DNA from: Protoeuglena noctilucae
Lineage: Eukaryota
Length of the DNA: 64,000 nucleotides
Assembly (NCBI GenBank): GCA_958009085.1
Contig: OY253668.1
Location: 62,001-126,000, forward strand
Reading direction: 5' to 3'
The stretch's first letter is position 1; each line of letters starts with the position of its first letter. Below the pieces are notes generated by a model that was not told the origin of the DNA, made no database searches, and was given only the letters and a program-made list of their open reading frames with translations. This document shows positions 3,708 through 61,371 of the stretch, one piece after another. A program made the position numbers and the translations under genes.

Positions 3708-5479
3708 ATGTCCGATGCCAAGGCTGCGTTGCCCGCCTTCTTGACGTGGCTCTCCGCGCAAGGCGCCAGCGTGGAGGGTTGTTGTAGCATCGTCCCGGCC
3801 GAGAGCGGGCTCGGCGTGGTTGCGACGCGAGACATTCAGCCGGACGAGCTCCTCGCGCGACTCCCAAAGCACTGCCTGCTCAGGTGAGGCTCTAAGTGTG
3901 CGCTGACTACCCGTGCCAGGCCTTAAACGCAGCTGCGCTCTTTTCTTATGGCCGCCGCGCTGTGCGCTGCTGATGCAACTCCGCCTCTGCGCCGCGCAGC
4001 GTGCGGACGACTTCCGTGGCTCGTGTGCTGGCGGACCTCGGACTGGATGAGGTCGAGGGCGTCGGGCTGACGGGCGAGAGGGCCTGGGGAGCTGCCTGGC
4101 TTGCGCAAATGCGTGACCCTTGCAGCACAGCGACCGCTGGGCTCCGCACCGCGCCCCCGCAGTGGCGGTGATGATGGAAAGAGCGCGAGGGGACGTGTCG
4201 CCGTGGCGCGCATACTTCGCCACCCTCCCAGAGGTGCGGCGTGGTCGTGGACGGGTACGGGGGAGCTGATGCGGTGGCTCGCCCAATGCTGCCCCAAGCT
4301 ACAAAGCACAACGGGCCTTTCTTCCTATCGTCTCTCACCGCACTGCACTGCAATTTGTAATCGCAGCGGGAGTACCTGCCGATGTTTTGGACGGAGGAGG
4401 AGCGGGGCCGCTTGCGAGGGACGGAGGCGGCGGGGGCGGGGGAGTGGTGAGGCGCATGCATGGTGGGGGGGGGGGGGGGGGGGGTGGGGGGGGACCGACG
4501 CGATTACTACTGAGTGGCGTGTATGTTGGGTAGCACTCATTACCACCCCCTCACCCTCCACTCCCTCACCCTCCACTCCTCCACTTACCGTCTCCTCACC
4601 ACCACCCCACCCACCCCCACCGCGCCCCACCACCCCCACGGGGTGGTAAGAGTGTTGGGGTGGTTAGGGTTTTCCACTCCCTCACCCACCATCACCCACC
4701 ACTCCCTCAACACCCACCCCGCCCTCAGGGATGCGGCGGTGACCGAAGACCACTACACGACCCTGGTCGAGCCCAATCTCCCTCGCCTATGCCGCGCGGC
4801 TGGCCTGCCCCCTCCCTCCACTACTCCCAAATCAAAAGGCAACACCGCACACAAAGGCGACGGTTCTGGCAAGAAAAAGCGCCGACAAGCGCTCAACTAC
4901 CAAATCACCAAACGACGACGAATTAGCTACCAAGAAAGACGTTGACCATCTCTCTTCGTCTCTCCTATCTCTTGACGCTTATCGCCACGCTGCTTCTCTG
5001 GTTNNNNNNNNNNNNNNNNNNNNNNNNNNNNNNNNNNNNNNNNNNNNNNNNNNNNNNNNNNNNNNNNNNNNNNNNNNNNNNNNNNNNNNNNNNNNNNNNN
5101 NNNNNNNNNNNNNNNNNNNNNNNNNNNNNNNNNNNNNNNNNNNNNNNNNNNNNNNNNNNNNNNNNNNNNNNNNNNNNNNNNNNNNNNNNNNNNNNNNNNN
5201 NNNAGGGGGGGGGGGGGGGGGGGGGTGGGGTGTTGTGATGGAATGGGGTGGGGTGGTGATAAGGGTAAAGGTAGCGGTGCTGAGGTGAGGGGGGGGGATG
5301 GGTGTGAGGGAATGGGCGTGGTGTGGGTGCGATGGGGTGTGCTAGTATACATCAGACTCTCCCATTCATTAACTGTGTGCCTCATCCACTCAGTCTCACT
5401 CCGCCCATTGCCACCCAGAGTGACGGAGCGAGAGGCGCTGGCCAGGGTCTTTGCAGTCTGCGACCACGCTCTGCCGTAG
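3708..5479 (+). CDS. SET-domain protein lysine methyltransferase (SETD6/Rubisco LSMT-like), interrupted by an assembly gap
   Basis: Motifs FLTWL, GLGVVATRDIQPDELLARLPKHCLLS, LTVAVMMERARGDVSPWRAYFATLP and EYLPMFWTEEE are typical of this family. A probable last exon at 5418-5479 (RVTEREAL...) follows the gap. One GC-AG intron at 4074-4162. Confidence 0.8.
5004..5203. other. Assembly gap (200 N)
   Basis: Run of N; both gaps are exactly 200 N, so this is probably a placeholder length. Confidence 1.
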
Positions 5480-5721
5480 TCAGTGCACATAACCAAAACT
5501 GGGCCATTGTCACAGCTTGTAGAGGAAAAAGGGGCTGTCCCGCCACAGTATATCGCATGTAACACCAGTTACAGTGACGGTGCACATATTAGGGAACACA
5601 AGACCCTGCCAGGCCTGGCCAGGGTGTTTGCACATGTGCATAGCATAGTATTACTTGAAAGTAACAATTTACTTTTAAAGGCATGCTTAGGTGAAACACA
5701 AAGACCGGCACCCGTCCCCCC

Positions 5722-7984
5722 TCACCCCTCGCCCAGCCTCCCACCCCCCACCCACCCGCCCCGCTCCCACCGCCCCCTTTCCCCACCTCTCCCCGCCCCC
5801 ACCACCCCTCTCCCCCTCCCTCCCCCTCCCCCCCCCGCCCCTGCCCCGCCCCCACCACCGCCCCCTGCCCCCTTTGCCCATGCACCTGCCCCACACTCCC
5901 CGCATGCCCCACCCCCGCACCCCCATTCGCCCTCCCATGCCCCCTGCCCCCGCCTCCGGTCTGCGATGAGCCTCTCCAGCAACGCAGCCGGCGTCTGCGG
6001 GGCTCCCTTGCGCCGGAAGAGCGTTTGAAACGCAAACACGCGGCCGTCCACCACCACCGTCGCATCGCTGGGGTGGGGGGGGGAGGGGGGTGAGGTGAGT
6101 GGGGAGTGTGCGATGGGTGGGGCAGAAGTGGTGGGGTGGGTGGGGGTGGGGAGGGTGCGATGGGAGCAGCATCAATGACACATAATAATCAATGCATCTA
6201 ACTGTCACTTGTCAATCCACCCCAGCCATCTCACCACAGGATGTCGTTGGGGGTGAGGAGCGTGAAGACGTCGCGGGAGCCGCCCTCGTGGGGGGGACCC
6301 CACCTGGTGACGATCTGCAGAGATGGCGGGTGTGAAAACATTACAGTACTGAGAATTGGGATAATGAAATACATTGACAGACGATCCCAATGGAATGGTA
6401 TATGACGGAGCAGGTATCGCAACATCACAACCATCCACTCGCCTGCACGGCGTCCCCCATCACCGCCAAACTGCCCTCCATGTCCCCCCTCCAGTCGCGC
6501 CGCCTCTGCCCCGCCCACGCCCCGGACAGAGGATACCGCTCTCGACTGCGATAGAAAGGCAACGCGCTGAACACGGACAGCTCCACGTATGCGGAAGACG
6601 ACACGGGGTGGTTGTTATTGTTACTGCCATTGTTATTGCCACGGTCGCTTGTCTCGTGGATGTCCACGTCCATGCCTCGCACCAGGGTGAGGGCAGAGCG
6701 CATGAGCCAATTGAGCCTGGGGGGGGTGGGGGTGGGGTTACTGAGTGGAGTGACTGTGACTGGGGTGCTGGCCGCTGTATCCACACACTGATGACAGCAA
6801 TGCCGACTGCCCATCTCCATCCACGATCCCCCTTAGTATAGCACATAGTGCATTGGATAACACACCTCCCCTTCATGTACATCCCCCCACTCACTGCATG
6901 GCGTCGGCGACCTTATCATTAAGGCTCGACAGCCCCACGTCCCGCAGCCACGTCCCGCACAGCGCCCGCCTTCCCTCCGCGCTCCCGGGGGGGTGCAGCA
7001 CGCGCAACGACGCCACCCTCCGCTGCGCCCACCCCTCGCGCCCCCCCCCGCCCCCGCCCCCCGCCGCCCGCGCCCCCGCCAGCGACGCCAGCACCGCCAG
7101 ACTCACGGCCAGCACGGTAGCCGATAAGACGCCGGCCAGGGCCGCGGCGCCGGGGGAGAGGGAGTCGAAAAAGACTTCGAGAGCGGACCAAAAGTCATAC
7201 ACAGCACGGCCGACAGGGGCGGCAATGGCGGCGGCGGGGACGGCGAGGTGTGCGCGGCCCCACCGCAGCGCGGGGGCGAGGGCGGCGGCGGCGGAGGGTC
7301 CCCGCACCAGCGCCCAGGCCTGCCCCAGAGCCGGGCCAGTGAGGGTGCGCACGCGTGTGGTTGCAGATGCTAACCACGCTAATGCCTGCGAGGCGGCGTC
7401 GTGGAGGGCGCGGGGGCGCGGGGCGGCCCAGAAGGCGGCCCACGCGCCCTGGATGCTCGCCCTGGGGGTGGGGAGGGGGTTTACATGAGTATGGGTGCAT
7501 ATCGGCAAGTGGGAGATGCGGTGGGTGGGCCAGGGACCGCGCGGGGGCTAAAACGAGGTGGAAAGCGAGAGAAAACAAGGCGCATGTTTGTATCTGCTCC
7601 ATGCTATGACCCAGGGCCAGCGGCGGACCCCGCGCTCGCGCAAACAGGCGTGCTTGTGCCGGTCGCTCACCAGTGCACGTCCAGCGTGTGCTTGGCGGCC
7701 GCGGCGAAGAGCGCGAGCGTCACCAACGCGTAGAAGAGCGCCACGAGGCCATCGGCCGTACGGTTGCGCGCGGAGCGGGCGCGCTCCGCAGCTGCAAAGC
7801 GGGCGTCGCGGCGCGGTTGAGCCTTGGAACGCACGCGGCGTCCCCCGCCGACCGATACCGATACTTCGCTGACAGCTGCGAGGCTGGGCGAGTAGCCGGC
7901 GGCCGCGTGGCTCGGATCGAGCGCGGCGCGGGAGCCCTGCATGCACGGTCGCCCGGGCTGGCCATCCAGACGGGGCCGCGACAC
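5722..7984 (-). CDS. Hypothetical membrane protein with C-terminal lipocalin/FABP-like beta-barrel domain (start uncertain)
   Basis: Hydrophobic segments GLVALFYALVTLALFAAAA and LAGVLSATVLAVSLAVLASLA. Spliced exons give LCGTWLRD...LNWLMRSALTLVRG...RERYPLSG...RRRDWRG..., IVTRWGPPHEGGSRDVFTL, CDATVVVDGRVFAFQTLFRR. The GxW start and beta-strand pattern suggest a calycin-like fold (inference). Confidence 0.55.
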
Positions 7985-9605
7985 GGCGCGCAGGCCACCG
8001 CGAGAAAGCTTTCTGCTTCAAGAACTCACCGCGAGACTTCCGTCCCACAAAGACGAAGCCCCGTCGTCCTCCCTGCGATCCACGCGTACGGGAACGAACG
8101 GTGAGCCGTGCGGGCCCTCTGAAGGCTCTCGCACGGGTCACGGCAAAGCCACGCATCGCGGTTTTCGTAACAATCAAATCGCGAAGGCGCTGCCCAGCAT
8201 CGGGCCAGCGCTGGGGCGTGGCAATACTGCAGGAGCTGCCCATGAGCGCATCTGCCATCCCGCACCTGTCCGCCCCCCGTGGCTGTCGCTGCCTCACGCG
8301 TCTCCTACGTAGGGCCCCAACCAGCGCACCCGCGGCCAGGAAGCTGGCCAACGCCAGGCGGTTGGCCATGGCCTGCGCTCACGACAGCGCACGTGCCCGT
8401 GCCGCGGCTGGCAGAACGCTTAAGGCACCGCGCTGGGCGCACCGGCCTTTCTCCAGCCTGTCCCGTCCCGGTATCAGCTCGGCATCGCTAAATCGAGACA
8501 ACACCGGAGCTAGGTTCGATGGAATTCACTCGTGATGGACAGATCGACGATGTGGCAAAGGCGCAGCAGTGCAATTTGTACAAGTGGCATTCACGCGACC
8601 CTCGCGCTGGGAAATTAGCGACCCTGGAACCGGGTCAGTCTGCCAGTTGGCCGATTCCACCTGCAAGGCGCTTAAGCACCGAATGCACAGTGTCATCGCA
8701 ACACTAGCCAGGGATCAAGCATTCGCCGGCCCACGACGCGCAGAGAGCTGGCTTGCGCTTGAGGGCGCCTGCGGACCTGCCACGGGCACGAAAGATGGCG
8801 GGGCACAGCTCGAGGGATCCATGAGCGACTTCAGTCGCGGGCGCGGCCGGGGGACGTCCGCCCCGGCCCGGAGGAGCCTCGTTTGGGTCAACTCGGCGAA
8901 CCAGGTGCAGCGTGGCCTGGAGCGTGACGATGCCCCGCCCATTCATTGCTCACCTGCGTCTTTATCGCGTCTTCTGACGTTTCCGATGCCCGCTTGTGCG
9001 AGGGAACCAACTGGGATGCAGGCCCCAGTCGCCCGGGCGTCCTGCCCGTCGCGCCGGGGCATCTCGCGCCGCCCATCCTCTCTTCGCCTCGCCCCTGCAC
9101 TGGATTTGTGAACCTTCTTGCCAAGCCACTTTCCACGCCCGCAGAACGCGACGGCCAGGGCGGCGGACGTGCCGGCACGGAGGGGCGGCTTGGCTCCCGC
9201 TGGGCGCGGGCGGCAGGCGCGGGTGAGTTCTTTATGGCTCGCTTCTCGGTTCTTTATTTAGCAAAGAACGATCTGCTGAATGTCACAGGTGCCGCGGGGC
9301 CGCGCGCCGCTCGCGCGCGCCCAAGGCAGTCCGCCCTGGCTCCTCCCAGGGTCGCGGCCGTGGGGGCGGGTCTCTGGTATGGTCTCGCAACGCTCCGCAT
9401 TACTCAAGCGACTCTGCGCGCGGCGGTGACAACGATGTCGGCCAGATCGCCATCTTCGAGGACCTGGGCGCCGGCCCTGTGCCCCTCCGCGACGTGGCGT
9501 CGGAGGCGAGGATCCGCGCACACTACGCCGCTGCGGATGAACATTTGTTTTCCTGCATATATATATAACCTCGTCGTTGCCGCGTGTCGCCCGCAGGTGG
9601 CTCAG

Positions 9606-12600: not shown

Positions 12601-15600
12601 GTGCGAGCGAGGGAGCGGGGGAGGGTGGGGTGACTGAGAGAGAGAGGGAGAGAGACAGGGAGAGGGAGAGGGATAGAGATAAAGAGAGGGAGAGGGATAG
12701 AGAGAGGGAAAGGGATAGGGATAGGGAGAGGGAGAGGGAGAGGGAGAGAGAGAGAGAGAGGGAAGAGGAGCGCACCCCCAAGCGCCCCCGCCGGGTGGTG
12801 ACGGTGGTGGCGGTGCAGCGTCCAGTGGCGGCCGCCCGCACCGCGCGCGAGTGGGCGGCGTGGCGGGGCGGGGTGCGCTCCGGCCGCGTCTTCATGTGCA
12901 GCGATCGGACGGCGGGGGAGTGCCTGAGGCGTGGGTTGTTCGGGGGACCTTTGGGGACGGACTTGTCGGGGGTCAATGAGACCACGGCGCTGTTCCTGTT
13001 TAATTTCGAGACGCGGCTGGTCATGGGGGTGTTCCGGTGAGGGAGTGGGGAGGGAGTGTGGAGTGAGAGTGTTGGGTTGTGGTGGCAGCACTGTGGTTGC
13101 CTCTCGCCACCCTCACACACCCACACCGCTCACCCAGACAGTTCGCAATCACTCATCAACCACGTACAATAATCACTCAACATCCTCACCTTTCCCCCAC
13201 CCCCAGCCCCGTCCGCATGGGCATGAACCTTCACCCCGACGCATGGACCGACAGCGACGGCCATGGCCACGCCCACGCCCACGCACGCAACCGGGGCAGG
13301 AGGCCATCCACACCCTTTCCATGCCAGGTGAGGATGGTTGGGGGGAATGGGACAGTACACTCACCCACTCCATCCCCACTCACCCACTCACCCATTTTAT
13401 CACACATACTCCCTCACCCGTTCCAACACTCACTTACCCACCCCCTCCCACCCCTCCCCCCCTCACAGGTGGAGTGCGTGCAGATGCTGCGGTGTGACGG
13501 TGAGCCCGCCACCCCCGCACCCCCCGCTGTGACGGTGGCGGAGGCGGAGGTCACGGGGATCGTCACAAGACACCGAGTGCGGCAAGAGTGAGTATGGTGG
13601 GGGGGATGGGGCGTGCGTGGATGTGATTGTGGGGGGTGGGGGTATGAGTGTGGGTGTGCGGGTGGGTGCTCTGTGCAATGATACTACTCACTACCTTGAC
13701 CCTCACTGCCACCCTCCCCAACCACCATCACACACACTCCCCACACATCACACCCCCACCCACCTCCCCTCCCCCCCAGGCTTTCCCAAGAGGAGGCCTT
13801 GGCTCTGATAGATCTCATCGAGCATCGCAAATGGGGCAGGGACCGACCGGACATGCGACCGCGGCTGAGCTATGGGGGTGCCGATGAAATGGGCGTCGGG
13901 GGCCAGGATGAGGTTGGCGCGGCGGCGGGGGCGTGGGGGGGGGAGGGGGTGGGTGGGGATGGGGATGGGGGTGTGGGTTGGGATGAGGGCGGGGTTGGTG
14001 GGGATGTGGAGATGGGTGGGGAGGGTGGGGACATCGATGTTCCCATCTATGCTAATGATGGGGATAATGTTGATAAGGATGATGGGGCTATGGATGATAG
14101 GGATGACGATGCGGAGTTGGCGGAGTTCATGCGGAGGGTGCAAGAGAGAGCAGAGGCGTATGCGAGGGAGATGGCGGCGGTGGGTGGGGATGGCGATGGG
14201 GGTGGCGATGGTGGGGATGATAACAAGAGTGGTGATGGTGGGGATGGTGGGGATGGTGACGGTGCCATTGGCAGAGCAAGAGAGGGAGCTGAGGTAGCAG
14301 CGTGGGAGGGGGCGGGTGGGGATGATGAGGGTGGTAATGGCGACGAGGGTGGGGAGGATGTGGTGGATTTGGAGGAGTTCTTGATGGGGTTGGCGGAGGG
14401 AATGCGGGGGGGAGATGGAGAGGATGCAGATCTGGGGCAGTCACTTGCAATCAGGGAGGAGGGGGGTGCGTGGGGTGCGGGGGTGCGAGGGGGTGAGGGC
14501 GGTGGTGGGGGGGGCGATTGGCGGGCGGGGTGTCTGGGGATGAAGGGGCTGGTGGTGGGGAGGGGGCGGTTCGCGTGCCTCACGTGCGGATACGAGGGGG
14601 GCGACGAGGCAGGCGAGTGGAGGATGATGTGATGTGGGAAAGAGGGGGGGGGGAGGGTTGCATGTTCGCGTTGTGTTGCTTGCATCCTCGCTGCCACCCC
14701 CACCCCCACCCCCACTGCCACCCCCACCCCGACCCCCTCCCTCACCACCCACCACCCCTTCCCCCCCACGCAGCTCTCCGCGCCCACGCCACTACCTCCC
14801 GCCACGACGACCGCGTCCTCTCTGCTTCGGGCCTCGTGGCCCCACCCCCCGACGACGATCGGTCCAAGTCACCCTTCTTCTGCACCCTGTGTGGCATGCC
14901 CAGCCGCATGGTGACGCTCGCCACCGCCACTGCGCATTTGCGTAGTGTCGCTCATCGGGAGAGGGTGGCGGCTCATAAGGATGCGGTGGTTGCGAGGCAG
15001 GGGAAGCGGGGCAGGCGGGGGAGGGGGTGGGATGAGGGGGAAAGGAGAGGGGGGGAGATGGGGTATGGGGGGGGTAGCGAGGGGGCGGGTGGGGCGGGGG
15101 TGAGGGCGGAGGATGGGGAAGGGCGGGGAGGGGACGTGGGGGCGTTGGGTGGCAGTGGGGGTGCAGGTGCGGGTGCGGGGGCGGGTGCGGGTGGCAGTGC
15201 GAGTGCGGATGGTGGTGGCAGCGCGGGTGGCGGTGCTTCGGCATTTGCGAGGGGCGAGGCGGCGGGGTCTTCCACCGGCGACCCATATCTGTCGTTCGGC
15301 CCGACAGTGGCGCAGATGGTTGCGCGGTCGCCAGTCACCGCCACCCACTCTGCGCCATTGCCCGCAACTGCACCGGCCGCCAGCCACAGCCCCTCCGCTC
15401 CCCCCACCCTCGCCACCCCAGCCGCTGCGCCCCCGGCACAGTTGCAGGGGCAAACACAGGTGTCATCACAGGTGCAGGTGCCAACACAGCTGCAAGCACC
15501 AACACAGTTGCAGGCGCCACCACAGTCGCCGAGTGTCACCACCACCCCGCTCCACACCCTTCCCCTCCGCACCTACTCCCCCACGGACCCCGACAGCCTG

Positions 15601-23420: not shown

Positions 23421-25827
23421 ATGATTGACCCCTCGTTGATCGTGGTGAGCGGGCGTCGCCGCCAGGGCTTCTTTGCGCAATTTCGATGACTCCACGCACC
23501 CATCTAGTTTATTTCTGCACGTGCATGCCTCTCTCTGGCGCTCTCGCTCCCCTCGCGGTCTGCCCGAGCCCTGGCTGCGGCTGGGCCGCTCCCACGCTTC
23601 TTGGCGATCTCTCGCGCCCTTCCGCGATTGTTCTCGGCACAAGGATTCTCTGGGCCCTCGCCGTGCAGCCCGGGACGTGCGACGGATCCTCCCCGATCGC
23701 GTCCTAGCCCTCGGCCGCTGCGTGCGCTCCTGCTGCCGCGTCCCGGCCGCCGGGCCCGCCGCGCCTCTCCGCGCATCGCTCCGCTCCTCCGCGTTGCCAA
23801 TGACCACGCGTTCTCTCAACGCGCGACCCCCGCAGGCGAGGGAGGACGCCTGGGGGCCCCCGGTCGTCCCCGAGCTCCTCCATGACGTCCCGTACGCGCC
23901 CTTCTCCAAGTTCGACCGGCTAGGCAAGGCCGCGGACTGGACGGCGAGCACCTACGGCCGTCCCGCGCGGCGCACGCGCCAGTACCAGAGCGGGCAGCCC
24001 GTCAACACGGTCTTCAACTTCCAGATCACCGATGACGCGCAGTTCCAGGCGAGCGCAGCCGGGAAGCGCGCAGTGATATGCTGTGTTTTATACTTAACTC
24101 CGCGAAGCGCCGGTGGCCCGCCCGCCCGCCCCCGGCCAGCCACAAGGGCGGAACATCATCGGCCCGCCGACCTGCCCCCTCCCTTTCCCCGTCGCCCCCG
24201 CAGCTGGTGGACAACAAGGCGCCCGTGACGCGCCAGGCCGCGCGCGGCCCCGGCGGCCGCCGCCCGGGCGGTCCCTGGGGAGGCCGCGGCGGTCGGTTCG
24301 GCCCTCGGGAGGCCGACCGCCGCGATGGGGGCCGCGACACTGCCCCTGACAAGCGCAAGCCCATGGCGCCCCGGGGCAAGCGCGACAAGCGCCCCTTCTA
24401 CCGCGAGAACGTGGTCCGCGTCACCTACTCGCCCTCCGTGGACGTGGACCCTGAATGGGACCAAATTGAGATGGTACACTTGCCAGCCCTCGCCAAGGTG
24501 AGACGCTCTTACTTTGACAAGACCCTTGGGGGGAGAGGATGGGTCACAAGGTGCCCCTTTGCACACTTTTCTCTTTTGACTGCTCCACCCTCTGCTCGAC
24601 AGTTGTCGACCCCAACCCCCCCTTTGCTAACCCCGCACCCCCAACCCCCAAGCCACCCCACACACACCCCCACCCACCCCTCTCGTGCCCCCCAGCTGTC
24701 TCTGCAAGTCCCGCCGCCTACCGAGGTCGACGCCCGCGGTACCGCCCCCGTCCTCAACAAGGCGGTCGAGGTGGCGGGCCCCCGCCGCCCCGTGGCCGTC
24801 CCCGACGGCCCGGCCGCCCGGTGGCGCTCCCCCCGCGCGGTCGAGGACGCCGTGCTGATGCGGGAGCTGGAGCGCGGCGCTTCGACGGTGGTGGTGACGG
24901 ACAAGGTCCTCACGGCGCTCATGACGGCCGCGCGCTCGGTGTACCCCTTTGACGTCACCATCCACAAGCGCGGGGGCCGCGTGGTCGTGGACCGCCGCCT
25001 GCGCTCCCGCGTGGACCTCTGCACGACGCACGAGACGCACCAGGAGGGCATTCCGGAGGACTACGCCTCGGCCAACGCGGTGCCGGCTTTGACGTTCGAG
25101 TCCGACGCGGTCAACAACCGCTTCCAGGCCATCAGCGCCACCGCGCAGGGGGAGCGCATGGGGCCGGAGCCGGAATTCGAGGGGGGGGTGCCCGAGGGAG
25201 TCCCAGCCAAGGCCTACCGCTACCGCCGGTTCGACTTGGGTGGCGGCGTGGTGGTGTGCGTGCGGTGCGAGGTGGACGCGGTCACGACGGTGCGGGGGCA
25301 GACGCAGACGGTGTCCGTCAAGGCGCTGCACGAGTACGACTTGAGGTCAGGGTGGCGCAACAAGCTGCAGACGCAGGTGGGGGGTGTTGGGTGGGGGTGT
25401 TGGGTGTGGGGGTGGGGGTGGGGGTAGCAGTGTGGGTGTGGGTGTGGGTGGCGTGGTTGGGTGACGTGTGGGGTGACGTGTGGATGGGGTCGGTTGGTGC
25501 GTGGATGTGGTGTGGCTGTGGTAATAGACCCGCGCCATGCCCCACCCTTCTCTCCCCCCCCGTCTCCCCCCAGCGTGGCGCGGTGCTGGGCACGGAGATC
25601 AAGCACAACGGGTTCAAGGTGGCGCGGTGGACGGCCCAGGCGCTGCTGGGCGGCATCGACCGCTTCTCCCTGGGTTACGTGTCGAGGCGCACCGCCTCCA
25701 ACCGCGACGCCCACGAGCTGCTCTCCGTCATTAGCCTGGTGAGTGGTTATGGAAATCGTGTATGTTAACCGTCTGGTGCTGTCTGCTGGGCATGGTTGGA
25801 TGAGCATGATTGGCAGTTGTTGCGCTT

Positions 25828-25858
<31 letters not shown>

Positions 25859-26349: not shown

Positions 26350-27807
26350 CTACCCAGCCCCCAATTCATCAGCAAAAGGTCGCTCATTGCTAGGTCGCTC
26401 ATCGCTACCCAGCTCCCATTCCATAAGCAACAGATCGCTGCTCCGTTCGTAGCAGAACAGATGAGGGACGCGCCAGACGTCCAACACACGACCCACGAAA
26501 GGGACAGCGGCACCCTTGTCTCTACCACCACCAGCCACGTCGCCACCACCACCCATGTTGCCACCCACGCCACCCTCGGACCCCCTACCCCTGTCCCCGT
26601 CTGCCCCGCATCCGTCGCTGCTACTCCCACACACTCCCACTCCACCCCCACTGCCAGTGCCACTGCCACCCCTCCTCTCCCGGCCAACCCCACCCTCGTC
26701 GTCACCGCTTGACGTGTCCCATCCACCCCCACTCATACCGCCCCAGCCTCCCCGACCGTCGCAAATGCGCACGTGGGTCAGTAGGTGCTCCAGAGCCGGG
26801 GCATGCGCGCGCATCTCTGATGTGGTAAAGACCTCCCGTCGCTCCACTGCCACCAGCACCCTCACATGGTCGCCCCTGCAGCAGCACAGGGCAGGGCAGG
26901 TGTGAGTGCTGCCGCAACAGTCATGAGTCACAGGAAGACACAGCGCCGGGGTTGCGTTACAAGCGCCGCCCCGCACCTCTCCCGCGCGCGTCTCGCCACG
27001 CCCTTCGCCACCCGCACCCATGCAGACGTCAAGTCGTCCTGGTAAGCGCAGTCCGCAGCCACCACCCAATCGAACTCCCGACACGCGATGGCATCCCCGC
27101 ACCCCGCGACCCAGTCCAGCTCAGCCACCTCCGCCGTCCCCGCGCGCCCGCCGCTCCACCGCGCCATCGCCTCCACCGCAGCCACGTTGCCCGGCCGCGC
27201 AAGGTTTTGCTGCAGGTTGCCGAGCACGCAGTCGTGCCCGTGGCACGCGGCGCCCGCGGCCCTCGCGTCTTTTCGGCAGGTGCACCGGTCCGTGGCAAGC
27301 ACGCGCGCCCCGCTCGCCGCCAGCGCCATCGTCGTCAGCCCCGTCCCCGCGCCCAGCTCCAGCACGCGCCGGCCCTCGAAGCGCCCGCGGTGGGACAGCG
27401 CGAAGTCGCCGCAGAGCAGCCCGCCGCGCCAGAGCTGCAGGCCCACGTCCCGGATCGCAGATCGCGACTGGTGACGCAGCGCGAGACGCGCCACCAGGCG
27501 AGGGGGCTCAGCCGGGGGCTCCGGGTCGCGCCTCCGCCTCCGCTTGCGCCCGCGAGGAGAGTCGGACCCGCTGGACCCTCCGGCGTCGTCGGCTGGCGAC
27601 GCGCGGCCGGACCGCAATGGCAGCGTCGCCGCGACGCGCGTCTCCATCATTTTGACCGAGCCGCCCGGCACCGGGGCGCTAGCGAGCATGTGGAACTCAC
27701 TCACGACGAGTCCTGGGGATATACAGGAAGTCGTGGCCCGGTTAAAAGGCCCAGAGGTCCCAAGATGGGATTTATTGGAACGTTGAAAACTCGCCTGGGT
27801 CATCCAT
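26350..27807 (-). CDS. METTL22-like lysine methyltransferase (Methyltransf_16 family)
   Basis: VVSEFH, DVGLQLWRGGLLCGDF, SAM motif I VLELGAGTG, VAELDW, VAADCAYQDDLT, LVAVERREVF and C-terminal VPHLFCYERS. The tentative first exon MDDP uses a GC donor at 27794. Confidence 0.8.
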
Positions 27808-34000: not shown

Positions 34001-35760
34001 TGGACTGCGAGTGCGGCCACGGCTATGCTCGCACCGACGCCCTGCTTAGTCCACTGCGCTCGGCCCCTCGACCCAGCGCTGGTGTTACTATCCCTATCTC
34101 TCTCTCTCTTCTCTTACTATCGCCCCCACCATCCTCGCCTGCGACTTGCGGTGTGCCTTCTTGGCCGCCTCCATCACACGCTTGAGCTTCTTCTGTTTCT
34201 TGCGTTTACTGGCGGCCGTGCCCAGGTTGTGGGCCTTGTAGATGTCCTGCTTGGTGGGGCCTGCAGAGAGAGGGAGAGAACCGCGAATGATCGAACCGCA
34301 GCCGCGCTGCGACCCGGGATGCGAGCCGTTTCGTTAGTACCATGGTTGCACCTACGCCCAGCTGTTGTCCGTCCATCTCTGCGTGACCCCTCACCCGACA
34401 AGGCAGGGTTGGAGTCCTTCTCGTCGTCGCCGGACTCCTCCCCGCTGTCCTCGGCGCCCGTGTCCTGGCCCAGGAAGAAGCGGAGGGCCGCCAGCATCAC
34501 GCTCGAACTCTTGTGGAAACACGCTGCGAGCGAGCAAGGCATGAGACGTGTCTCGCACGGGTCTATCGGGAGGATGAACTAACATCGACGAAAGCACGCC
34601 GTCTGAGCAGGGCGCGGCCGCCGATCAAGGCGCGGCGAGGAATGCCGGCGTTGGCAGTGCGCGAGGGGCCTGATAGCAGCCGACACCATCGCTGCCGGCC
34701 GCCGCAGCGCTCGCCTGACGCGATGACGTTGACGGTGCGCGCGTCCCTCCACACGCCCCGTCGATAGAGCTCCATGAGCACCGCCAGGGACTTCTTTGCG
34801 GCTGTCTCGTTGTCGTCCGCCAGCATCGAATACATGAAGTTCTGGAGGGCCCGGTTGAGGCGCTCGTTGCGGTGCTTGCGGTTCTGCGCCTTGATATCCG
34901 ACACGATGTGCCGGTAGAGGTGCTCCCTGGGCGCAGAGAGGAGGAGCGGCGACGTGCGATGAATCGGCACGAGCAGCAGCTGCGCCCGGACTCGGGCAGC
35001 CCCGCGCGGTCCCCGGCGGCCCGGCGTCGCACCGGAGAGCCTTGTCTTGAACGCGGAAGAGCCGGAAGAGGAGCGGGAGGGCGTCCGCGGGGGCGACGAG
35101 GCCCTTGTTCTTCAGCAAGATGAGCGCCTGCACCATGGCCTTGCGGAGCTGGCCGTCCAACTGCGCATGCAGCTCGTCCAAAAGCGACATGAGCTCCTGC
35201 GGTGACCGGAAAGAGCCGTGTCGGGCGGGTGGGGTCGGCGGCGAGCCGAAACCATGTCACGGTGCGCGGGCAGCCCCGCGGCGGCTGGCGAGCGCGGGGG
35301 CCGGGGTGAGACGCAGCCGAGCGCACGGAACTGCCCATGACGGTCACCTTGGGAAACCCGGCCATTTTCGAGGGGTAGCAGTGGGCGACCTGGGCCAGGA
35401 ATTGCACGAGGTTGGCGAGCTCCCGCGACGCGGACTGCGGACTGAGCCGCAAGAGCTCCAGCTGTGACTTGTAATGCCTGTACTGCAGCTCGAACTCATC
35501 CTGGTAGCCCTCCGCGTCGCCCTTGATGGCGCTCTGCGGGACAAGGGCGCCGGCGGTGGCTGGTCGCTGCGCCGTCTCGGGACGCGCGGAGCGAGATGCG
35601 AGACGACTCGGAAAGACGCGGATGACTTTCCACAGCCCGCAGGCCGCGGTGGCGCGCAAGGGAGGAGCCGAGCGGCCGCTGCGAGGGGCGTTCACGGCGC
35701 GTCTTCCGCAACCGGCGCCGCGCCCACCTGCAGCGCCAAAAGGTCCTCCACCGCCGTCAT
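31082..35760 (-). CDS. SDA1: Protein SDA1 homolog (60S ribosome biogenesis/export), multi-exon
   Basis: [138 protein letters not shown], an acidic tract, RILTDADF and a basic C-terminus. Confidence 0.95.
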
Positions 35761-41384: not shown

Positions 41385-44300
41385 ATGCTGAGGCTTGCGG
41401 CCGTTGCGGTGGGCATGGCGCTCGCAGGCGGGGCACTGGCCCAGACCAGCGTCCCGCCTGCCACGGCGAGCCCCAGCCCCACCAGCCCACCCACCCCGAC
41501 ACCCAGCCCGGTGCCGTCCCTAACCCTGCCCCAATTCACCGTCACCTCGCAAGCAAACACTCAGGCAGGCATACTTCGCGCAAGCAGCTTCCCAGGCACA
41601 GCCATTGCGTATGCTGCCACGGCTAACATTGCATCACTTGCCGCACGTGAAGCGCCCCGCACTTGACACCAACACTGCATTGGCATGCCCCTGCCTGCAG
41701 CCCGGTGCCCTGGCGGGGATCATGGCGGGAACGACATCCGCCGCCCAAGCCCAAGCAGGTGCGAGAGCAGCATGTGTGTGTGCAACTGCTGGCGCCCCTT
41801 GCAACGTCGCACACGCAACCTGACCCGACCCTTCTGACTCGCTCCCAGCCTTCATCCGAGCTGCCATTTACTGCCGTCCCGTGGACAAGGACACGCTCCA
41901 TTCTCAGGACACGCCGTACCTGTACAAATTCCTCGACAGCTTCGACCTCCCGTATGTCCCCAGCACCGTCGACGCCAGCCTGGGACCCTGGCCGCTATAC
42001 CAGGGGCCCGACAGCATCCTGTGGTGCCAGTTGTGGAACTGCAGCAGCTCCACGGGCGGGTGCAACTGTGAGTGGGCTTGGCGCCAGCGTCGCAGTGGCC
42101 GGGGTTGAACCGATGCGGATGTGGGGGGGAGTGCTTGTCATGAATGGGTGGCAGTGGAGTCGATGGGCTTGGTGAAGGGTTAACATGTCGAGTTGACAGG
42201 CATCCACATGATGACGTCGTGTCTTATCGTCACCCGCAGCGGTGGTGGCGTGGGCGCCCAACCCCACGTATGGGGACTACCTCATAGGGTCCTCCCTCCT
42301 GGCGTTGAGGGACTTCCAGGGCACCGACAGCATCACGGCACAGTTCTGGCAGGGCACAACCCAGACTGCCCAGGCGGTCCTCTCGTGTCCCCAGGCGAGG
42401 GGCGAGAAGCAAAGCACGATGCGAGGTTCTCGTCACGCAGTGGGGTCGCCCTATGGGTCACCCTATGCAAGCTTAGTACACGGCCCTCGCACCACTCGTT
42501 CCTTTTTTGCTCGTTCACACGTGCACTGCCCCTCTGCGCCCCTCCTCTGCACCAACACCTGGGCCGCCTGCCTGGTGCGTGGGATCTGTACCCACGCCTG
42601 CCACCAGCACCTCCCCGCAGTGCCACACGGTTGCGGACCAGGCGGCCGGCACCCCGCCCGTGTGGGCCAACGCCACTGCCAGTGACTTTGTGCTGGGAGG
42701 CAGCGCCTCACAGCCCGTGCCGCCCCTGGGACCGGTTCCCCCACCTGGCCCCACCACCGCGCCAACGTCACCCGCATCGCCACCCTCACCGCCATCGACA
42801 CTCACCCCGTCTCCTTCCTCCCCAACGGCGACCCAAACGCCCTCGCCCACGCCTCCGCCACCGTTGCCCTCAACCCCAGCTGCCACGTCCACCACCGCCC
42901 CCTCTTCCTCCACACCGCCACCCCCGCCAACGTCGTCTCCACCTAGCGACACTGCGGCTCCCACGCAGGCTCCCTCAGCACCCTCCTCACCATCCACCAG
43001 CCCCAGCACGGTCACCTCATCGTCCCCTTCCCCAACTGACACCTCCCCGTCCCCCACCGCGCCCCCATCGCCACCCCCAAGCGCCACGGCACCACCCACG
43101 TCCAACGGAGGCGCAGGTCCCACAGGCGCCACGTCCCCTCCGCCCCCCAGCCTCCCAACCAGCACCACACCCGCTGCACCGTCGCCTGGGTCCCCGACTG
43201 CCCCACCTGCCCCTGCTGTGGGAGATACGACCCCCGCGCCCCAGCTCTTGGCCACACCGACGCCGTCAAGCTCAGGGGGCGCCCTCCTGAGCCCAGGCGT
43301 CACAGACCCCACCCCCACGGGCGCACCGGGGTCGGCGGGTGGCCCCAGTGCACCCCCACAGGCCCAGACAGGCACGCCGACTAGCCCATCGTCGACGCCC
43401 AGCCAGTCTCCGCATGCCACCGGCCCCGTATCTGACCTTGGTCCGGGTGCCGCCCAGGGAGGGCTGCAGAGCGGAGCAGGGGGCGGCGTGGGCACCGGCG
43501 ACTTGGGCGGGGTCCCACAGGCGACTCCTCGCGATGTGCGCCGCCCCCACGGCATGTGGGGTGCCGTGGCGGGCGCGGCGGGGTCTGGGGTGGCCGCGGT
43601 GGTCGTCACGCTGCTTGCGCTCGTCTGCGGGGCGCTGGCGCTCGTGGGGCTGTTCCTGCTCGTCGGGGCGTGCATGCGAGGGTCCCGCCGCGGCAAGGAC
43701 ATGCGCATCGACATGCTGGCCGAGGTGACGGGTGACGCCGCTTTGATAGTCACACACTGTATGGACATGCGAGCACCCCAGTTGCACGTTCATATACTAC
43801 CCTGCCCATGCTCGACACGCTTATCACCCTCTCTGATCACCCCCACCGCAGTTCCACCCCCTCTGGGAGCCCATGCTCGAGACCCTGCGCCAGCAGCAGC
43901 AGCGCCGCAACCCTCGCCCACTCGTGCCTCCCCGGGACACCACTGTCCCCCTGCCAATGTCCGAGGTGACACTTCAATGTCAGCTGCTGAACCCTGTGCC
44001 ACCCATTGTACACCACCTGCCTTGGCATGTTGGAAAGGAGCGTCCTGTGCCCTGAGCTGCCATGCGCCATGCATACCGTCCCTATCGTGCAGTAAACCTC
44101 ACTGTACACCTCTGTCTTGCAGGCCATCATCCGAGGACTGGACTTCACGTTCCCCAGGAGGACCACGGGCCCTGATGCTGGTGCCAGCGGGGCTGTGCCA
44201 GCGCAACTGCCAAATGCCACGCCCCCGCGCGGCCGGGGCGACGGCCCCGGGGACCCCGCGCCTCCCTCGGCGCGCCGCGAGCAGCCGGAGGCGTCAAGGA

Positions 44301-44461
44301 AGTCGGGGGGCAGAGCGGGCGACAGCCGTAGAGGTGCAGTGCAAAGCTCGTCTCTGAGGGGGAGGGATGGGGGGGCGGGAGGGGGCGGGGTGGCTGAGGC
44401 GGGGGCGGGCGGGCAGCCGCGGAGGGGGTCTTGGTGGTGGCTGTCCCGATTTGATAGATAG
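41385..44461 (+). CDS. Secreted/type I membrane Ser/Thr/Pro-rich (mucin/HRGP-like) glycoprotein
   Basis: Signal peptide MLRLAAVAVGMALAGGALA-Q, a Cys/Trp-containing N-terminal domain, a long S/T/P stalk (~42700-43420), a TM helix (VAAVVVTLLALVCGALALVGLFLLVGA) and a cytosolic tail. Confidence 0.7.
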
Positions 44462-53109: not shown

Positions 53110-56100
53110 CTACCCCAGCACGGAGGCCGAGGCCGCCTCCTTGCGAGGCATGGAGCCCTCCACGTACTGCTGCAGGAAGCTCTTGGCCCGCGCCAGGACG
53201 CGGCCCTTCCGGTCCAGCTCCGCCTGCATCTCGCGCTTCTCCTCCACCAACTCGGCCACGCGGCGCAGCGCCACCGCCAGCTTCTCCTCCCCGTCCGACG
53301 AGTCCCTGCGTTTGGACCGGGGGAGCGTATCACGAAACTGGCCTGGCGCCCATGCAGTCTCCCTCTGCAGTCCTCTACTGTGACTCGCCCCAACCCTGCC
53401 CAGCCTGCCCCTGCTAGGCGCGCACCCCGGCCGCCCCTCGCCCCGCTGCCGCTCACCGGATCTGCGCCACGAACTCCTCCACCACGTTGACCGCCTCCCG
53501 CTCCGCGCGGGCCTGCAGCTGGCCGGCCCGCTCGCGCCAGGACTGCGCCTCGGCCGCAAGGGCCCGGTTCTCCGCCCGCAGCCCTGCCACCTCCGCCTCG
53601 AGGTGAGAGCCGCCGCCCGCGCGCGCCGTCGACCCCTCCCCCCGCACCCTCTCCCACGCGAGCAGCTTCTCCAGTTGCTCGGCGCGCGCTGCAGCTGCCT
53701 CGGCCTCTGCCCGCCGCATGTCCAGCTCCCGCTGCGACCACGGCGGGGCGGATGGCGTTGCCGCGCGGTGCTTGCCAGCGACGCAAGGGCCTCGAATGCC
53801 ACCCAGCAGTCCGAGGCAACAGCAAGGCAACGGCGTTTGTGCCACAGGCGGCGCGGGCGTCCCTCACCCGCACGCTGTCGGCATCCTCCCGTGCCGCGTA
53901 GCTGCTCTCCATGCGCTCTGACGTCGAGATGTACTCGGCGATGGCCTCGGCAGCCGCCTCCGCCACCTGAAAGGATCGAAGGACACGCCGGTGGTTCAGC
54001 AGCCGGGTCCAAGTCGCCAGAACCGAGACTAGACTGGGTCTAAGGCAAGAGACCTTGTCTATCTGATCTCATCTCAAACTCACCTGGAGAAGCTCTTGCG
54101 CCGCCAGCGCCTCCGCCGCCACCTCTTCCCGCAGCGACCGGAGCTCAGCCTCGGACGCAGAGCCGACGGGCGCAGCCACGCCATTCACCCGCGCCGACCC
54201 GTTCATGCCGGGCGCTGGGTAGGAGGCCTGCGGGGGTTCGCAGAGATGCTGTTGAGGCTCACTAAGCTGCCAGATCTTTTTGAATAGAGCTCCACATACT
54301 CGAGGGCTGACCACAGGTGTACGGGCGCTGCATGCGTTGTGCCAAACTGCATGGCCAGGCTCCCCACTCCGCTCACCATGCCGTTCGTCGAGGCGCCATT
54401 GTTGTAGCCGTTGTTGAACCCCCGCTGCACAGCCCTGCGAGGAAAGATTGTCCCAGGGCCAGCGTGACGCGAGCCCCATCCGCGCCCCCAACGCCCTCGC
54501 ACCCAGCGACGCCGCACACGCATCGCCCCGCCGCAGCGCCCCTCGCCTGGCTTCGTCCAGCGCCGCCTTAAGTTCCTTGACCTCCCCCGTCAATCGCTGC
54601 TCTCTCTCCACTGCCTGCTGCTCGCGCCCTTTGGCCTCCTCCAGCATGCCCTCCAGGCGTGCCGACGCTTCCGTTGTCTTCTGAGACTCCTCCTTCACGG
54701 CCGCCAGGTCCACGCGGGCCTTCTCCAGGTCCGCTCCCAGCTCCGCAGACTGCCGCTCCAGCAGCGTACTCTTCAGTTGCGTCTCCTCCACCATGCGCAT
54801 TGCCTCGCGAGCCGCCTGCATGGGGCGGATGGGGGAGCAATGAGGGTGGAGCAGCGCGCGTGCGGGCTGACGGAGGGCGTTTCAGGTCATGTTCGGAAGG
54901 AGTGGCGATGCCTCTGACATTGGTACAGCAGGGACATCGACCTGTGCCGCACCACCACGTGGCGCAGCCGTGCCGCGTGCCCCCCCACTCCCAAGCAGCA
55001 AATCCAGCAATCCTTCACCATGTTCGATATATCACCAACTGTGTCTTATATCATTCACCTCGAGGGCCTTCTCGGCGTCAAGCTGCGACGCCTGTGCTTC
55101 CTTCTTCCACCTCGCGGCGTCCACCTCCCGCAGCGAAACCTCGTTCTTCAGAGACGCAACCTCGTCCGCCAGCGCCGACGCCTCGTCCATCGACTGCGGC
55201 GCAGAAACGAGGGCATCCGTGAATGATGGATTGCGGCGCTGAGAGCTTATGGTCTGCATGGCCCCACGCCCTGCCCTGCATGTGCGCCCCAGCCCATCAT
55301 GCACACAGCTGGAGTGACTCGACCATGCAGGACCTGCCCCAGCAATTCCCACATCACATCCCTTCCCCTCGCCTTCAGCAGCTCCTGGGCCGAGTCCTGC
55401 CCCTCCTCCCGCACCACCCTGCACAGCACGTCCCCGTCCGCCCGCATGCGCGCGATGCGCTCCCTCAGCATCCGCGCCTCCGCCTCCGCCACCTCGCACT
55501 GCCGCTTCGTCTCCTCCAGGTCCTCCCGCAGTCGCTGCTCCTGCCGCTCCAGGCGCCCCACCCGGTCCTTCAGCCCCGCTAGCTTCGCCACCGCCTGCGC
55601 CCGTGCCAGCTCCTCCCTCGTCTCCTCCAGCGCCGCCTGCGCGGCGCTCGCCGACGCCCGCGCCTCCCCCAGAGAAGTCTCCAAGTCTTGCACCCGCGCC
55701 TCCAGCTTTGCTTGGACTGCCTGGGCCTCGGTCGTGCGGCGCTCCCACAGCGCCGCGCTCCGCCGCGCCTCGGCCGCCTCGCGCACCGCCTCCTCCATCG
55801 CCCGCCGCGCCTCCGCGGCGTCCCGCTGCGCCCGGTCCTGCGCCGACCGGCTGTCCGCCGCCTCCACCTCGAGCCTTGCCTGCGCCTGTCGCGCTTCGAA
55901 CGCCTCCCGCTCTGCGCGTGCCAGGGCCATCCGCGCCACCTGCACCTCCCGCGGCACGGCCTGCGACGACGCCGAAGCCTCCGCAGCCTCCGCGCCCTCC
56001 TCCTCTCCCTCCTCCTCTCCCTCCTCCTCCCACTCCTCGTCCCTCGCGCCATCGTCAGCACCCTCCTCCACCTCGTCGCCCTCTGCGTACGCCACCCCCT

Positions 56101-58400: not shown

Positions 58401-58695
58401 TCTGCAACCGGATTCGCCGCAAGAGCACGTCGACAGGGCGATGGATAGCCCCGCTGGAAAGGGGGGGATGCGTCGCCATGGCCGCGCCCTGGGGTTACGC
58501 TGCGGGCCTAGCGACCATCGCTGTTTTTCGAAAACACGAGTCGTGCGTCCCCACGACGCAGGAATGCTTCACAGCTGGGGCTTGACCCGGGCCGTCAGTA
58601 AACGCCAGAAGGGAGATTCGGGGCGACATCAGCGTCCCCGCCGCGCCCCCGCGCCACCAGAGCCCGGCGCGGCAGGCGATCCTTTGCTGGCGGCC

Positions 58696-61371
58696 ATGTC
58701 CCTCTTCGCAGCGCGCGGCGCTTGCGCCCCCTGCGCCTCCGGGCGCGACTCGGCGGGGACCCGGTCGACGCGCCACCCCCAGGCCCGCCCGGTGCGCGGG
58801 CGCAGCACGCGCGCGATGGCGCAGACGCAAGTGAAGGTGGCGACCGACCTCAGTGCCTCGACGGCCAAGCAGGCGCTCGCTCACCTGCAAAACATCTCGG
58901 GATCCGGAAGCAGTGAGTCGGGGGGTCGGTGTGCCGAGGCGGGGCGCGCTCCCCGCCTCCTGCGCGTCGCGATGGTCGGGATAACGATTGCTCTTTCTGC
59001 TGGACGCGCGGGGGGAGGGGTCCCGGCGGATTTTGCCACCAAATCGCGCGGCTTTTATCTCGGCCCCCTTGCACCCCGCGGCCGGCGCCTTCCGCGGCCC
59101 AGAGCACGCCCCAGCGTTCGCGTCCCTTATTGCGAACGCGTGCGCGTGGGCTCCGCCACTGCGCGCCCCGGCCCGGGGCCCTCCCGGGAGGGAGGGGGTC
59201 TCGCGGTGCCCGTGCGCGCTCCCCTGGCCCCGGGGCAAGGTTCCGTGGCAATTACGCCGCGTTAGAAAGCGATCGATCTCTCTCTCTCCCCCTTCCCGGC
59301 CCCGGGACGCGCCCCGTCGCGCTCTGCACTTGGGTCGACCTCCCTGGGCCGATTCCGGGGCGCGGGGAGCTTGACCCGGCCATCCTGCGCCCGTAGCGCA
59401 TTTCATTTGCCGCGAATTGCCCCTTCTCGCCCTTTCCTTGCGCTCTGGGGCCCCGAGCGCGTCGGAGCTCCCGGCCCGAGTTCTCGCGATCCGCGCTTTT
59501 TCGCCCGCGAGGGTGCGCGAGGGGTCGCCCGTCGCGTCCCATCCCTTTCTCGCTGTCGCCTGTGCGGCCTGGGGGCGCACAGGGCCGGGCGACAGGGCGC
59601 GGATCGCTTGCCGTGGTAGAGACCAGGTTCTAGCCCCCACCCGCGCTGGAGCTCGGCGAGCGCCGTGCCCGGCGACGTTTCCCCCCTCCCTCGCTCGCTG
59701 TGATCGCTAGCTAGCCTCTGGCGCGGGGCGGGGCTCGGCGAGCGACTGGGGGCACCCCTGGTCCCGGTCTCGAGTGCGCCGCCTCCTGCAGGGTACCTGA
59801 ACGCGGACAAGCAGAAGTGCATCATCTCCATCGGCCTGACGATCCACTCGTGCCCCGTGGAGGTCCGGGAGAAGATGGCGGTCCCGGAGGCGAGCGGCGC
59901 GCGGCGTCTTACCTCATGCGGCCGGGCAACCCTGTCGCGCCTCCCCTCACCCCGCCCCGCGCGCCCCCGCAGGCCGAGTGGCCGCGCGCGATCGCGGAGC
60001 TCACGTCCTTCCCGCACATCGAGGAGGCGGCGGTGCTCTCGACGTGCAACCGTATGGAGGTCTACGTGGTGGCGCGTGCGTTCCACTCGGGTGTACGCGA
60101 GGTAGAGGAATGGATGAGCGCCACGTCGGGCATCGCCCTCGAGGAGCTCAGGTGCGACGCCGCCCGATCGACCGCGTGTCGGCCGACGGTCCCGCGAAGT
60201 CGCCATGTACAAGCGGCGATGGCTGTGCAGTTCAGAGTGCCTGCTCTGCCCCCCTCACGGCCACCACCTCACACCCTCCCCCCGCAGGCCGTACCTCTTC
60301 CTGCTACGCGACTCGGACGCGACGGCGCACCTGCTGCGCGTGGCGGCGGGCCTCGACTCGCTGGTGATGGGCGAGGGGCAGATCCTGGCCCAGGTTAAGG
60401 CCGTATACCTGTCCGGCCAGGACAGCACCGGGTTCGGGCGCCACCTCAACGGCCTCTTCAAGCAGGCCATCACGGCGGGCAAGCGCGTGCGCGCCGAGAC
60501 GTCCATCTCGACCGGCAGCGTGTCGGTGTCGTCGGCCGCGGCCGAGCTGGTGCAGCTCAAGCTCCCCACGCACATCTTTGACGACGCGCGCGTGTGCATC
60601 ATCGGCGCTGGCAAGATGGCCAAGCTCCTCGTCAAGCACCTCGCCTCCAAGGGCTGCAAGCGCCTGACGATCGTCAACCGCTCCCTCCCCCGGGCCGAGG
60701 CGCTCCGCGACGAGTTCCCCGAGGTCCACATGGACCTGCGCCTCACGCCCGACCTCATGGCGTGCTGCGCCGAGTCGGACGTCATCTTCGCGGCTTCCGG
60801 GTCCGAGGAGATCCTCGTGCACGCCGAGGACGCGGCCAAGCTCCCCCGGTGCCCCGCGGTGGTGGGCGGCGTGCGGCGGTGGGTGGACATCTCCGTGCCG
60901 CGCAACATCGCCCGCGAGGTGGGGGCGGTCGAGGGCGAGAAGGTCTTCAACGTCGACGACCTGAAGGAGGTGGTGGCGGCCAACAAGGAGGCGCGGGCGC
61001 AGGCGGCGGCCGAGGCCGAGGTGCTCCTGCGGGAGGAGCAGCGTGCGTTTGAGGGGTGGTGGGACTCGCTGGAGACGGTGCCGACGATCAAAGCGCTGCG
61101 GACCAAGGCGGAGGACATCCGCGTGGCCGCGCTCGAGCAGGCCATGCGCCACCTGGGCGACGGCCTGACCAAGAAGCAGCAGAAGGCCGTTGAGGAGCTC
61201 TCGCGCGGCATCGTCAACAAGCTCCTGCACGGGCCCATGGCGGCGCTGCGCTCGGACGGCGCCGACGCGGCCCAGGTCGCCCAGACGCTCCAGAACATGG
61301 AGGCGCTCGACCGCATGTTCGGCCTGGCCGAGATCAAGGCGCGCGACGCCATGGCCAAGGCGCGCAACTGA
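58696..61371 (+). CDS. hemA: Glutamyl-tRNA reductase, chloroplast precursor; exons 58696-58912, 59792-59889, 59973-60151, 60288-61371
   Basis: [27 protein letters not shown], catalytic [67 protein letters not shown]. Confidence 0.97.

Follow-up and report, generated by a model that had tools for sequence, protein, structure and literature searches.

The window analysed here, a stretch of 64,000 nucleotides (nt) from contig OY253668.1 of the Protoeuglena noctilucae assembly GCA_958009085.1, consists of intron-rich eukaryotic nuclear DNA, in which introns recur that begin with GC instead of GT. The occurrence of such GC-AG introns, put forward in an original prediction made from the letters alone, is confirmed, and five of the eleven claimed introns have been verified independently: one in the eIF3d gene by an RNA joint, three in SDA1 by neutral spliced alignment and one in hemA by abutment on a solved structure. 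Judging from their splice sites, these are most probably U2-type introns handled by the major spliceosome. The explanation that we prefer, with a probability of roughly 85%, is that the remainder of the donor (the 5' splice site) makes up for the mismatch at its position +2 and that such donors were enriched under genomic GC pressure. The G+C content of the window amounts to 67.2%, and its source reads as a GC-rich marine green alga. In one exon, the best named relatives of its SDA1 protein stem from the core green algae Gonium, Myrmecia, Chlamydomonas and Trebouxia (58-74% identity), while the best unnamed database protein reaches 88% identity.

Claimed introns and the support for their borders

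By sequence check, all eleven claimed intervals (Table 1) indeed begin with GCGAG, as had been stated, and end with AG. The exon ends in G at 11/11 donors and in AG at 10/11. A U12-type reading was rejected, since the U12-type GC donor motif GCATCC(T) (PMC1557818) is absent from all claimed donors: these continue after GCGAG with C, G, T or A, and none reads GCATCC. Border support is provided by an RNA joint in one case, by exact abutment of homologues or profiles in four and by reconstitution of a motif in one; the other five claims are unverified or only probable.

Table 1 Claimed and newly proposed GC-AG introns of the window (donor: exon letters in lower case, intron letters in upper case)
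Intron	Position	Strand	Phase	Length (nt)	Donor	Support
eIF3d	24049..24203	+	0	155	cagGCGAGC	RNA joint
SDA1	34524..34714	-	1	191	cagGCGAGC	picked with 16/16 homologues
SDA1	33846..34138	-	0	293	cagGCGAGG	picked with 10/16 homologues
SDA1	33452..33653	-	0	202	aagGCGAGG	picked with 16/16 homologues
hemA / glutamyl-tRNA reductase	59890..59972	+	0	83	gagGCGAGC	abutment on 4n7r_A
Splitting a C2H2 zinc finger	14613..14773	+	1	161	cagGCGAGT	motif rebuilt
SETD3-like gene (probable)	4074..4162	+	1	89	cggGCGAGA	relatives' fragments
Upstream of Methyltransf_16 gene (claimed)	27713..27794	-		82	cagGCGAGT	unverified; best local model
Claimed	6315..6442	-	0	128	cagGCGAGT	unverified; re-found by gene finder
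Before Pro/Ser/Thr-rich membrane-protein reading frame (claimed)	42395..42620	+		226	cagGCGAGG	unverified; best local model, weak
Coiled-coil-like gene (claimed)	54435..54546	-	2	112	cagGCGAGG	unverified; gene finder and best local model
New candidate	9506..9596	+	0	91	gagGCGAGG	gene finder and best local model
New candidate	55194..55372	-	0	179	aagGCGAGG	gene finder; ambiguous

RNA evidence was taken from a single marine metatranscriptome study, four runs of which have contigs containing 18-47% of the words sampled from a 10-kb stretch. Contigs of all four runs were placed on 23700-43699, and 15 of the 36 resulting joints were considered; uncovered parts and the other joints carry no information. 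The claims at 27794, 33653, 34138 and 34714 fall within the placed stretch but have no joint among these 15. In eIF3d, one contig each in X2 and X3 joins position 24045 to 24201 free of mismatches, skipping 155 bases with three slidable letters. Only 24049-24203 among the four placements of this joint gives G at +1 plus a terminal AG, so the intron predicted between FQ and LVD is spliced out in RNA, and Pfam eIF-3_zeta matches both of its flanks. A contig of 541 nt from another sample, X1 (23993-24533), runs unspliced across the same intron with 0 differences and carries the same GC donor. Because these letters are identical in an independent sample, the GC at the eIF3d donor is not an assembly error, and this reading was rejected. 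Thirteen other joints are GT-AG on one or the other strand. The last one, 30171 to 30619 (X2, X3), skips 447 bases with ends GC..CC, has only 21 letters on one side and conforms to the splice rules on neither strand; a repeat or another organism may be its source.

The unspliced X1 contig across the eIF3d intron would also agree with GC donors being selected as weak sites for regulated intron retention or alternative splicing, and GC donors have been reported as enriched in alternatively spliced genes of human, nematode and Arabidopsis (PMC2490688). X1 contigs, however, run unspliced through introns elsewhere too, owing either to intron retention or to DNA carried in the RNA library, so that retention is not specific for GC-AG introns. 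The affected genes (eIF3d, SDA1, hemA) are moreover housekeeping genes, and no alternative junction was seen among the joints considered. Selection for weak sites is hence quite improbable.

For SDA1, 16 homologues were aligned with a protein-to-genome aligner which applies an equal penalty to GT, GC, GA and GG donors and uses no splice-site matrix. It recovered both introns that had been predicted with confidence, 34714-34524 (VIAS/ACF) and 33653-33452 (FMQK/YLMPHQ), and both are continuous with regard to Pfam SDA1_HEAT: the flanks of the former match profile positions 73-142 upstream and 145-178 downstream, separated by a single exon residue plus the split codon, and at the latter the profile abuts between 281 and 282. 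The third intron, 34138-33846, which had been called merely possible, was the choice of most alignments as well, with the closest homologue (P0001) placing it after residue 209 and 2/16 homologues giving another model. In addition, the aligner finds eight GT-AG introns, of which 31754-31583 is also seen in RNA; 3/11 SDA1 introns are consequently GC-AG. The excess over chance is apparent from the alignment scores, as permitting GC donors lifts them by 43-118, far above the further 5-28 that are gained with GA and GG.

In hemA, the predicted break VPE/AEW is placed by chain 4n7r_A, a solved plant glutamyl-tRNA reductase, to which exon 1 aligns up to residue 48 and exon 2 from residue 49. The next intron of this gene, 60152-60287, is GT-AG and was located in the same way (residues 107 / split codon / 109). 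Intron 14613-14773 is strongly supported as GC-AG by the protein that its removal is predicted to yield. As proposed, splicing joins the halves of a C2H2 finger, C-x2-C-x12-H-x5-H, with the spacing of the intact second finger in the same gene and frame; the two fingers have in common the cysteines, one tyrosine, an Ala-Leu pair and both histidines. Unspliced, the frame meets a stop after six codons, and the interval scores best among 5 frame-keeping models.

The claim for the SETD3-like gene fared less well, and 4074-4162 is graded as a probable GC-AG intron. Exon 1 matches SETD3 residues 80-129, and a representative search with it returned 7 matches. Short protein fragments of two relatives favour coding up to 4073 (scores of 177 vs 161 and 170 vs 164), and thereby the predicted donor, whereas a full-length homologue gives the same score of 125 to the GC model and to an in-frame GT model (4052-4125). 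The donor of this GT rival is very poor according to a GT-trained matrix. A search of solved structures with the 34-residue SET exon gave no match. Two runs of 200 N mark assembly gaps in the window (5004-5203 and 22217-22416), the first of which truncates the SETD3-like gene past a proline-rich low-complexity stretch.

Frequency and donor context of GC-AG introns

The original prediction put GC-AG introns at about one in ten, and three measures bracket this value. Among RNA joints, which are the least biased measure, 1/14 interpretable ones is GC-AG. Verified introns give 6/30, in a sample that is enriched because genes were picked for their GC claims, and predicted introns give up to ~13 of roughly 75-90. 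A fair estimate for this window is a share of ~7-20%, with a floor of 6 in ~90. The norm of about 1% in plants and animals, on which the prediction relied, agrees with the values reported for 121 plant genomes (1.2%; PMC6310983) and for five model species (0.4-0.9%; PMC1557818).

As rough count and control, a self-trained gene finder was used whose codon table and splice matrices were trained on GT introns alone. When any G-N donor was permitted, it retained after filtering 38 GT, 10 GC, 4 GG and 0 GA donors. With GT and GC allowed, it gave 59 GT and 29 GC introns, and 16/29 of the latter begin with GCGAG. RNA or homology contradicted 3/13 of the GC predictions lacking GCGAG and 1/16 of those with it; the GC donors rejected on these grounds belong to 33846-34123, 38736-39144, 39795-40049 and 39182-39636. 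Measured against verified introns of the two best-known genes, the gene finder was correct in 4/4 and 10/11 cases. A strict local test demanding 20 open, coding-like codons on each side left few introns (GT 11, GC 4, GG 2, GA 1).

Such false proposals raise the question of artefacts, i.e. misplaced junctions next to a GT donor, read-through coding or T-to-C assembly errors. Besides the four contradicted GC donors, in-frame GT alternatives exist for 4074 and 55372. Five junctions are nevertheless fixed by the RNA joint, the homologue abutments and the neutral alignments, and for these five an artefact is refuted. As the best GT alternatives also have very poor donors and the independent sample has identical donor letters, the chance that an artefact accounts for the GC-AG introns is close to nil.

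The GC donors occupy a stricter context than the GT donors. AG/GCGAG (the slash marking the cut) is found in 6/6 verified GC donors, while AG/GTGAG is found in 4/24 verified GT donors (Fisher p 0.00035; 0.0011 when the zinc-finger case is left out). GT donors are diverse, with GTGAG, GTGCG, GTGGG, GTACG and others: of the 24, positions +3 to +5 read GAG in 10, and the exon ends with AG in 13. At +4, 12 donors carry A, 10 carry C and 2 carry G, and the GT donors group mainly into a GTGAG-like and a GTGCG-like class; a C in this place is uncommon among sites complementary to U1. Acceptor scores and pyrimidine content are alike in GC and GT introns. The heptamer AGGCGAG occurs 25 times on both strands of the window, 6 occurrences being verified or strongly supported donors and 7 more being candidates. 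Within the strong context, 14 introns with AG/GTGAG face 6 verified and up to 13 candidate introns with AG/GCGAG.

Explanations and related systems

According to the preferred explanation, C at +2 would introduce one mismatch to the 5' arm of U1 small nuclear RNA (snRNA), which would be tolerated only where all other informative positions are optimal for this organism, the exon ending in AG and the intron having G-A-G at +3 to +5. As the local consensus has G at +3, the resulting word is GCGAG. In a genome of 67% G+C, T-to-C pressure, be it mutation bias or biased gene conversion, would drive +2 towards C, and selection would purge this C in weak sites and leave it where the site is strong. 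Among donors of the strong context, +2 is C nearly as often as T. While the introns with their borders, their excess over controls and their stricter context are observed, the roles of U1 pairing in constraining the site and of GC pressure in driving the change are inferred. Since GC donors are confined to the strongest context while GT donors are loose, C at +2 seems to be still costly. The earlier suggestion of GC-biased conversion of GTGAG donors fits both the data and the literature, in which the GC-AG excess tracks high genomic GC; that conversion itself was at work here may be presumed from this pattern.

For comparison, 40 metagenome loci encoding relatives of SDA1 were fetched and nine of them aligned. 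In locus L018 (67% GC; 4683-11136), 7 of the 12-13 credible SDA1 introns are GC-AG, all with (C or A)AG/GCGCGC; they sit where other loci have GT, and the score gain with GC allowed is 234-284. The L018 gene is also present in L019 and partially in L015, L017 and L022. L021 (60% GC) has one GC-AG intron in SDA1 and L038 (65% GC) two, with donors GCAAG and GCAAT, while none was found in SDA1 of L011, L012 (68% GC), L023 (64% GC), L035, L036 and L039. Judged by these alignments, one and the same intron can therefore have T or C at +2 in different GC-rich green algae. None of the three SDA1 GC-AG introns of the window has a counterpart at the exact position; one of them lies one codon from a GC-AG intron of L038, and the one at 34714 lies two codons downstream of a phase-1 GT intron that is conserved in 8/9 loci. 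Most intron positions of the window's SDA1 (31085-35727, minus strand) are not common to the nine other green-algal loci, and these differences suggest intron turnover or sliding.

Turnover of this kind would fit a descent of the introns from one introner-like mobile element bearing a GCGAG donor. Introner elements are known in Micromonas pusilla and Aureococcus, the holders of the two highest published GC-AG shares. An all-against-all BLAST of 102 window introns, however, revealed only short C-rich tracts near the 3' end in common and no repeated sequence family, and the intron lengths vary from 82 to 293 nt. The introner reading was consequently rejected for the window as extremely improbable.

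Alternatively, the spliceosome of this lineage may have become less selective at +2 and accept GC as readily as GT, be it because of a divergent 5' arm of U1, changed contacts of U1C or Prp8 or a modified base. In favour of this, the GC-AG share differs sharply at equal GC, as illustrated by 7 GC-AG introns in SDA1 of L018 and none in that of L012. Likewise, the 22.2% of M. pusilla against the 2.7% of Micromonas RCC299 hint at a lineage-specific factor, for which protein components or base modifications were proposed in 2011 (Iwata and Gotoh 2011, PMC3033335). General relaxation predicts the opposite of what the window displays, namely GC donors in the single strongest context and loose GT donors. 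In the GC-AG-rich algae of the same study, U1 genes were retrieved in the three species examined, and the 5' arm is reported as the canonical AUACUUACCUG in all of them (PMC3033335). An Rfam search of the window found no snRNA gene. Relaxed recognition is unlikely, and the idea of a variant U1 or of altered U1C or U6 contacts, which the original prediction had raised, is disfavoured and unsupported.

A more elaborate variant, speculative and doubtful though somewhat less so than general relaxation, is that several GC-rich lineages of green algae changed their reading of +2 independently of one another, each with a fixed GC-donor word of its own. The words do differ: AG/GCGAG in the window alga, CAG/GCGCGC in more than half of the SDA1 introns of the L018 lineage, CAG/GCAA in L038 and none in L012. 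If true, lineage-specific donor words would point to changes in the U1 small nuclear ribonucleoprotein, in U6 or in proofreading by Prp8, not to base composition alone, and green algae would form a ready-made series in which the recognition of +2 could be dissected.

Several points weigh against compensation under GC pressure as the full account. Just one GC-AG junction is seen in RNA, the other junctions being deduced from homology. The data come from one 64-kb window and from flagged genes, whereby the figure of 20% is inflated relative to the unbiased RNA value. The gene finder is noisy: it recovered 7/14 RNA-supported introns in the training run with GT and GC, and four GG donors passed its G-N control. 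The invariance of GCGAG is partly a product of case-finding, given that the reader sought GCGAG and the splice-site matrix favours GAG; still, the SDA1 aligner and the RNA joint, both blind to +3 to +5, yielded GCGAG alone. High GC looks necessary but not sufficient, as judged from L012, L023 and Micromonas RCC299, and a lineage-specific factor is conceivable. Finally, for the GC-AG introns of the window itself, the nine loci compared offer no orthologous GT intron at the exact position.

Abundant GC-AG introns in very GC-rich algae have already been published. Iwata and Gotoh (2011, PMC3033335) reported 39.6% in Aureococcus anophagefferens, 7.7% in Chlorella sp. and the two Micromonas values given above, and linked the excess to G+C, which does not fully explain it. 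Like those algae, two of the three published species of which are green, the present one has a G+C content above 65% and a GC-AG share far above the norm of ~1%. Unlike them, it is a different, intron-rich organism (11 introns in SDA1) whose share is estimated from one window; within this window, G+C lies above the ~64% and the GC-AG share several-fold above the 1% that delimit the class of GC-rich algae. For the present alga, the strict AG/GCGAG context is documented as well. It adds an intron-rich green alga to a short list. A literature search by genus name on GC-AG introns in green-algal genera returned nothing on this organism, whose own genome paper may report the share.

Among pelagophytes, GC-AG introns make up ~14-17% in Aureococcus strains and ~14% in Pelagomonas calceolata, which was credited to high genomic GC (bioRxiv 10.1101/2024.10.30.620910). 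Share and marine habitat are similar to the present case, whereas pelagophytes are stramenopiles with <1 intron per gene and their figures come from predicted gene models. In Emiliania huxleyi, with a genome of 65% GC, RNA-validated GC donors account for 56-65% of junctions (PMC4028052). Here, too, a GC donor is combined with a canonical AG acceptor in a high-GC genome; in contrast, GC is the majority donor there and a minority confined to a single context in the window.

The consensus of animal GC donors has A at +3. In animals and in plants, the rest of the donor of U2-type GC-AG introns is likewise stronger and the acceptors are no different (Sheth et al. 2006, PMC1557818; Pucker and Brockington 2018, PMC6310983), although the share of these introns is 0.4-1.2% compared with ~7-20% here and the local +3 is G. 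According to Sheth et al. (2006, PMC1557818), GC donors match the consensus better and thereby offset the +2 mismatch with U1, and switching from GT to GC donors is described as common in vertebrates (PMC1557818; PMC2490688). The clean rule of the window, by which GC appears only inside AG/GCGAG, fits such a compensation and would require no new machinery. For annotation, predictors restricted to GT would get at least a tenth of this genome's introns wrong; the losses would include 3/11 introns of SDA1 and the first introns mapped in eIF3d and in hemA. In Emiliania huxleyi, predicted models contained 82% GT while RNA gave ~60% GC (PMC4028052).

Further candidates and other features of the window

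The further in-phase cases of the original prediction were compared with every GT or GC model within 90 bases that keeps the frame. The best local models turned out to be 27794, 42395 and 54546, while 6442 could not be scored, its downstream exon being too short; none of these cases has homology or a full RNA joint on its side. At 27713-27794, an X2 contig piece ends at 27711, the leftmost placement end for a joint at the claimed acceptor 27713; this agrees with the acceptor side of the claim, and 69 further letters of the contig lie outside the piece. The reading frame may begin downstream at 27689, which would place the intron in the 5' untranslated region (UTR). A homologue search with the open reading frame (ORF) of the methyltransferase brought up nothing other than P0058 (26931-27689, minus strand), which is the window's own sequence called as an unspliced ORF. 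This protein-database entry is a bacterial-style ORF call, which looks full-length and ignores introns.

At 42395-42620, the plus-strand reading after 42620 resembles a real protein with a transmembrane helix, and an X1 contig stops 6 nt into the intron, which is uninformative. The long Pro/Ser/Thr-rich ORF that follows (42621-44354, plus strand) ends in a C-terminal transmembrane helix and a basic tail and resembles a mucin-type surface protein. It is negative by the codon model, and the gene finder wrongly chose the opposite strand.

Two candidates are new. The interval 9506-9596 is, by gene finder and local models, a clear GC-AG candidate, as the best GT alternative scores far lower. For 55194-55372, a GT alternative at 55357 is nearly equal in score. 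The latter belongs to the same gene as 54546, and a homologue search with the 512-residue exon of this gene gave no match.

Pfam searches with 230 further ORF pieces revealed few domain-bearing genes and added only eIF3d, DUF1995, hemA and Psb27. Right-handed beta-helix repeats (Pfam Beta_helix, best E-value 1.7e-33) occur in two window genes, at 1700-3015 and 28169-29764, both on the minus strand. A small, highly covered gene (36003-37209) carries an RNA-supported GT-AG intron at 36247-36444 on the plus strand; as it precedes the apparent start codon, it is a 5' UTR intron.

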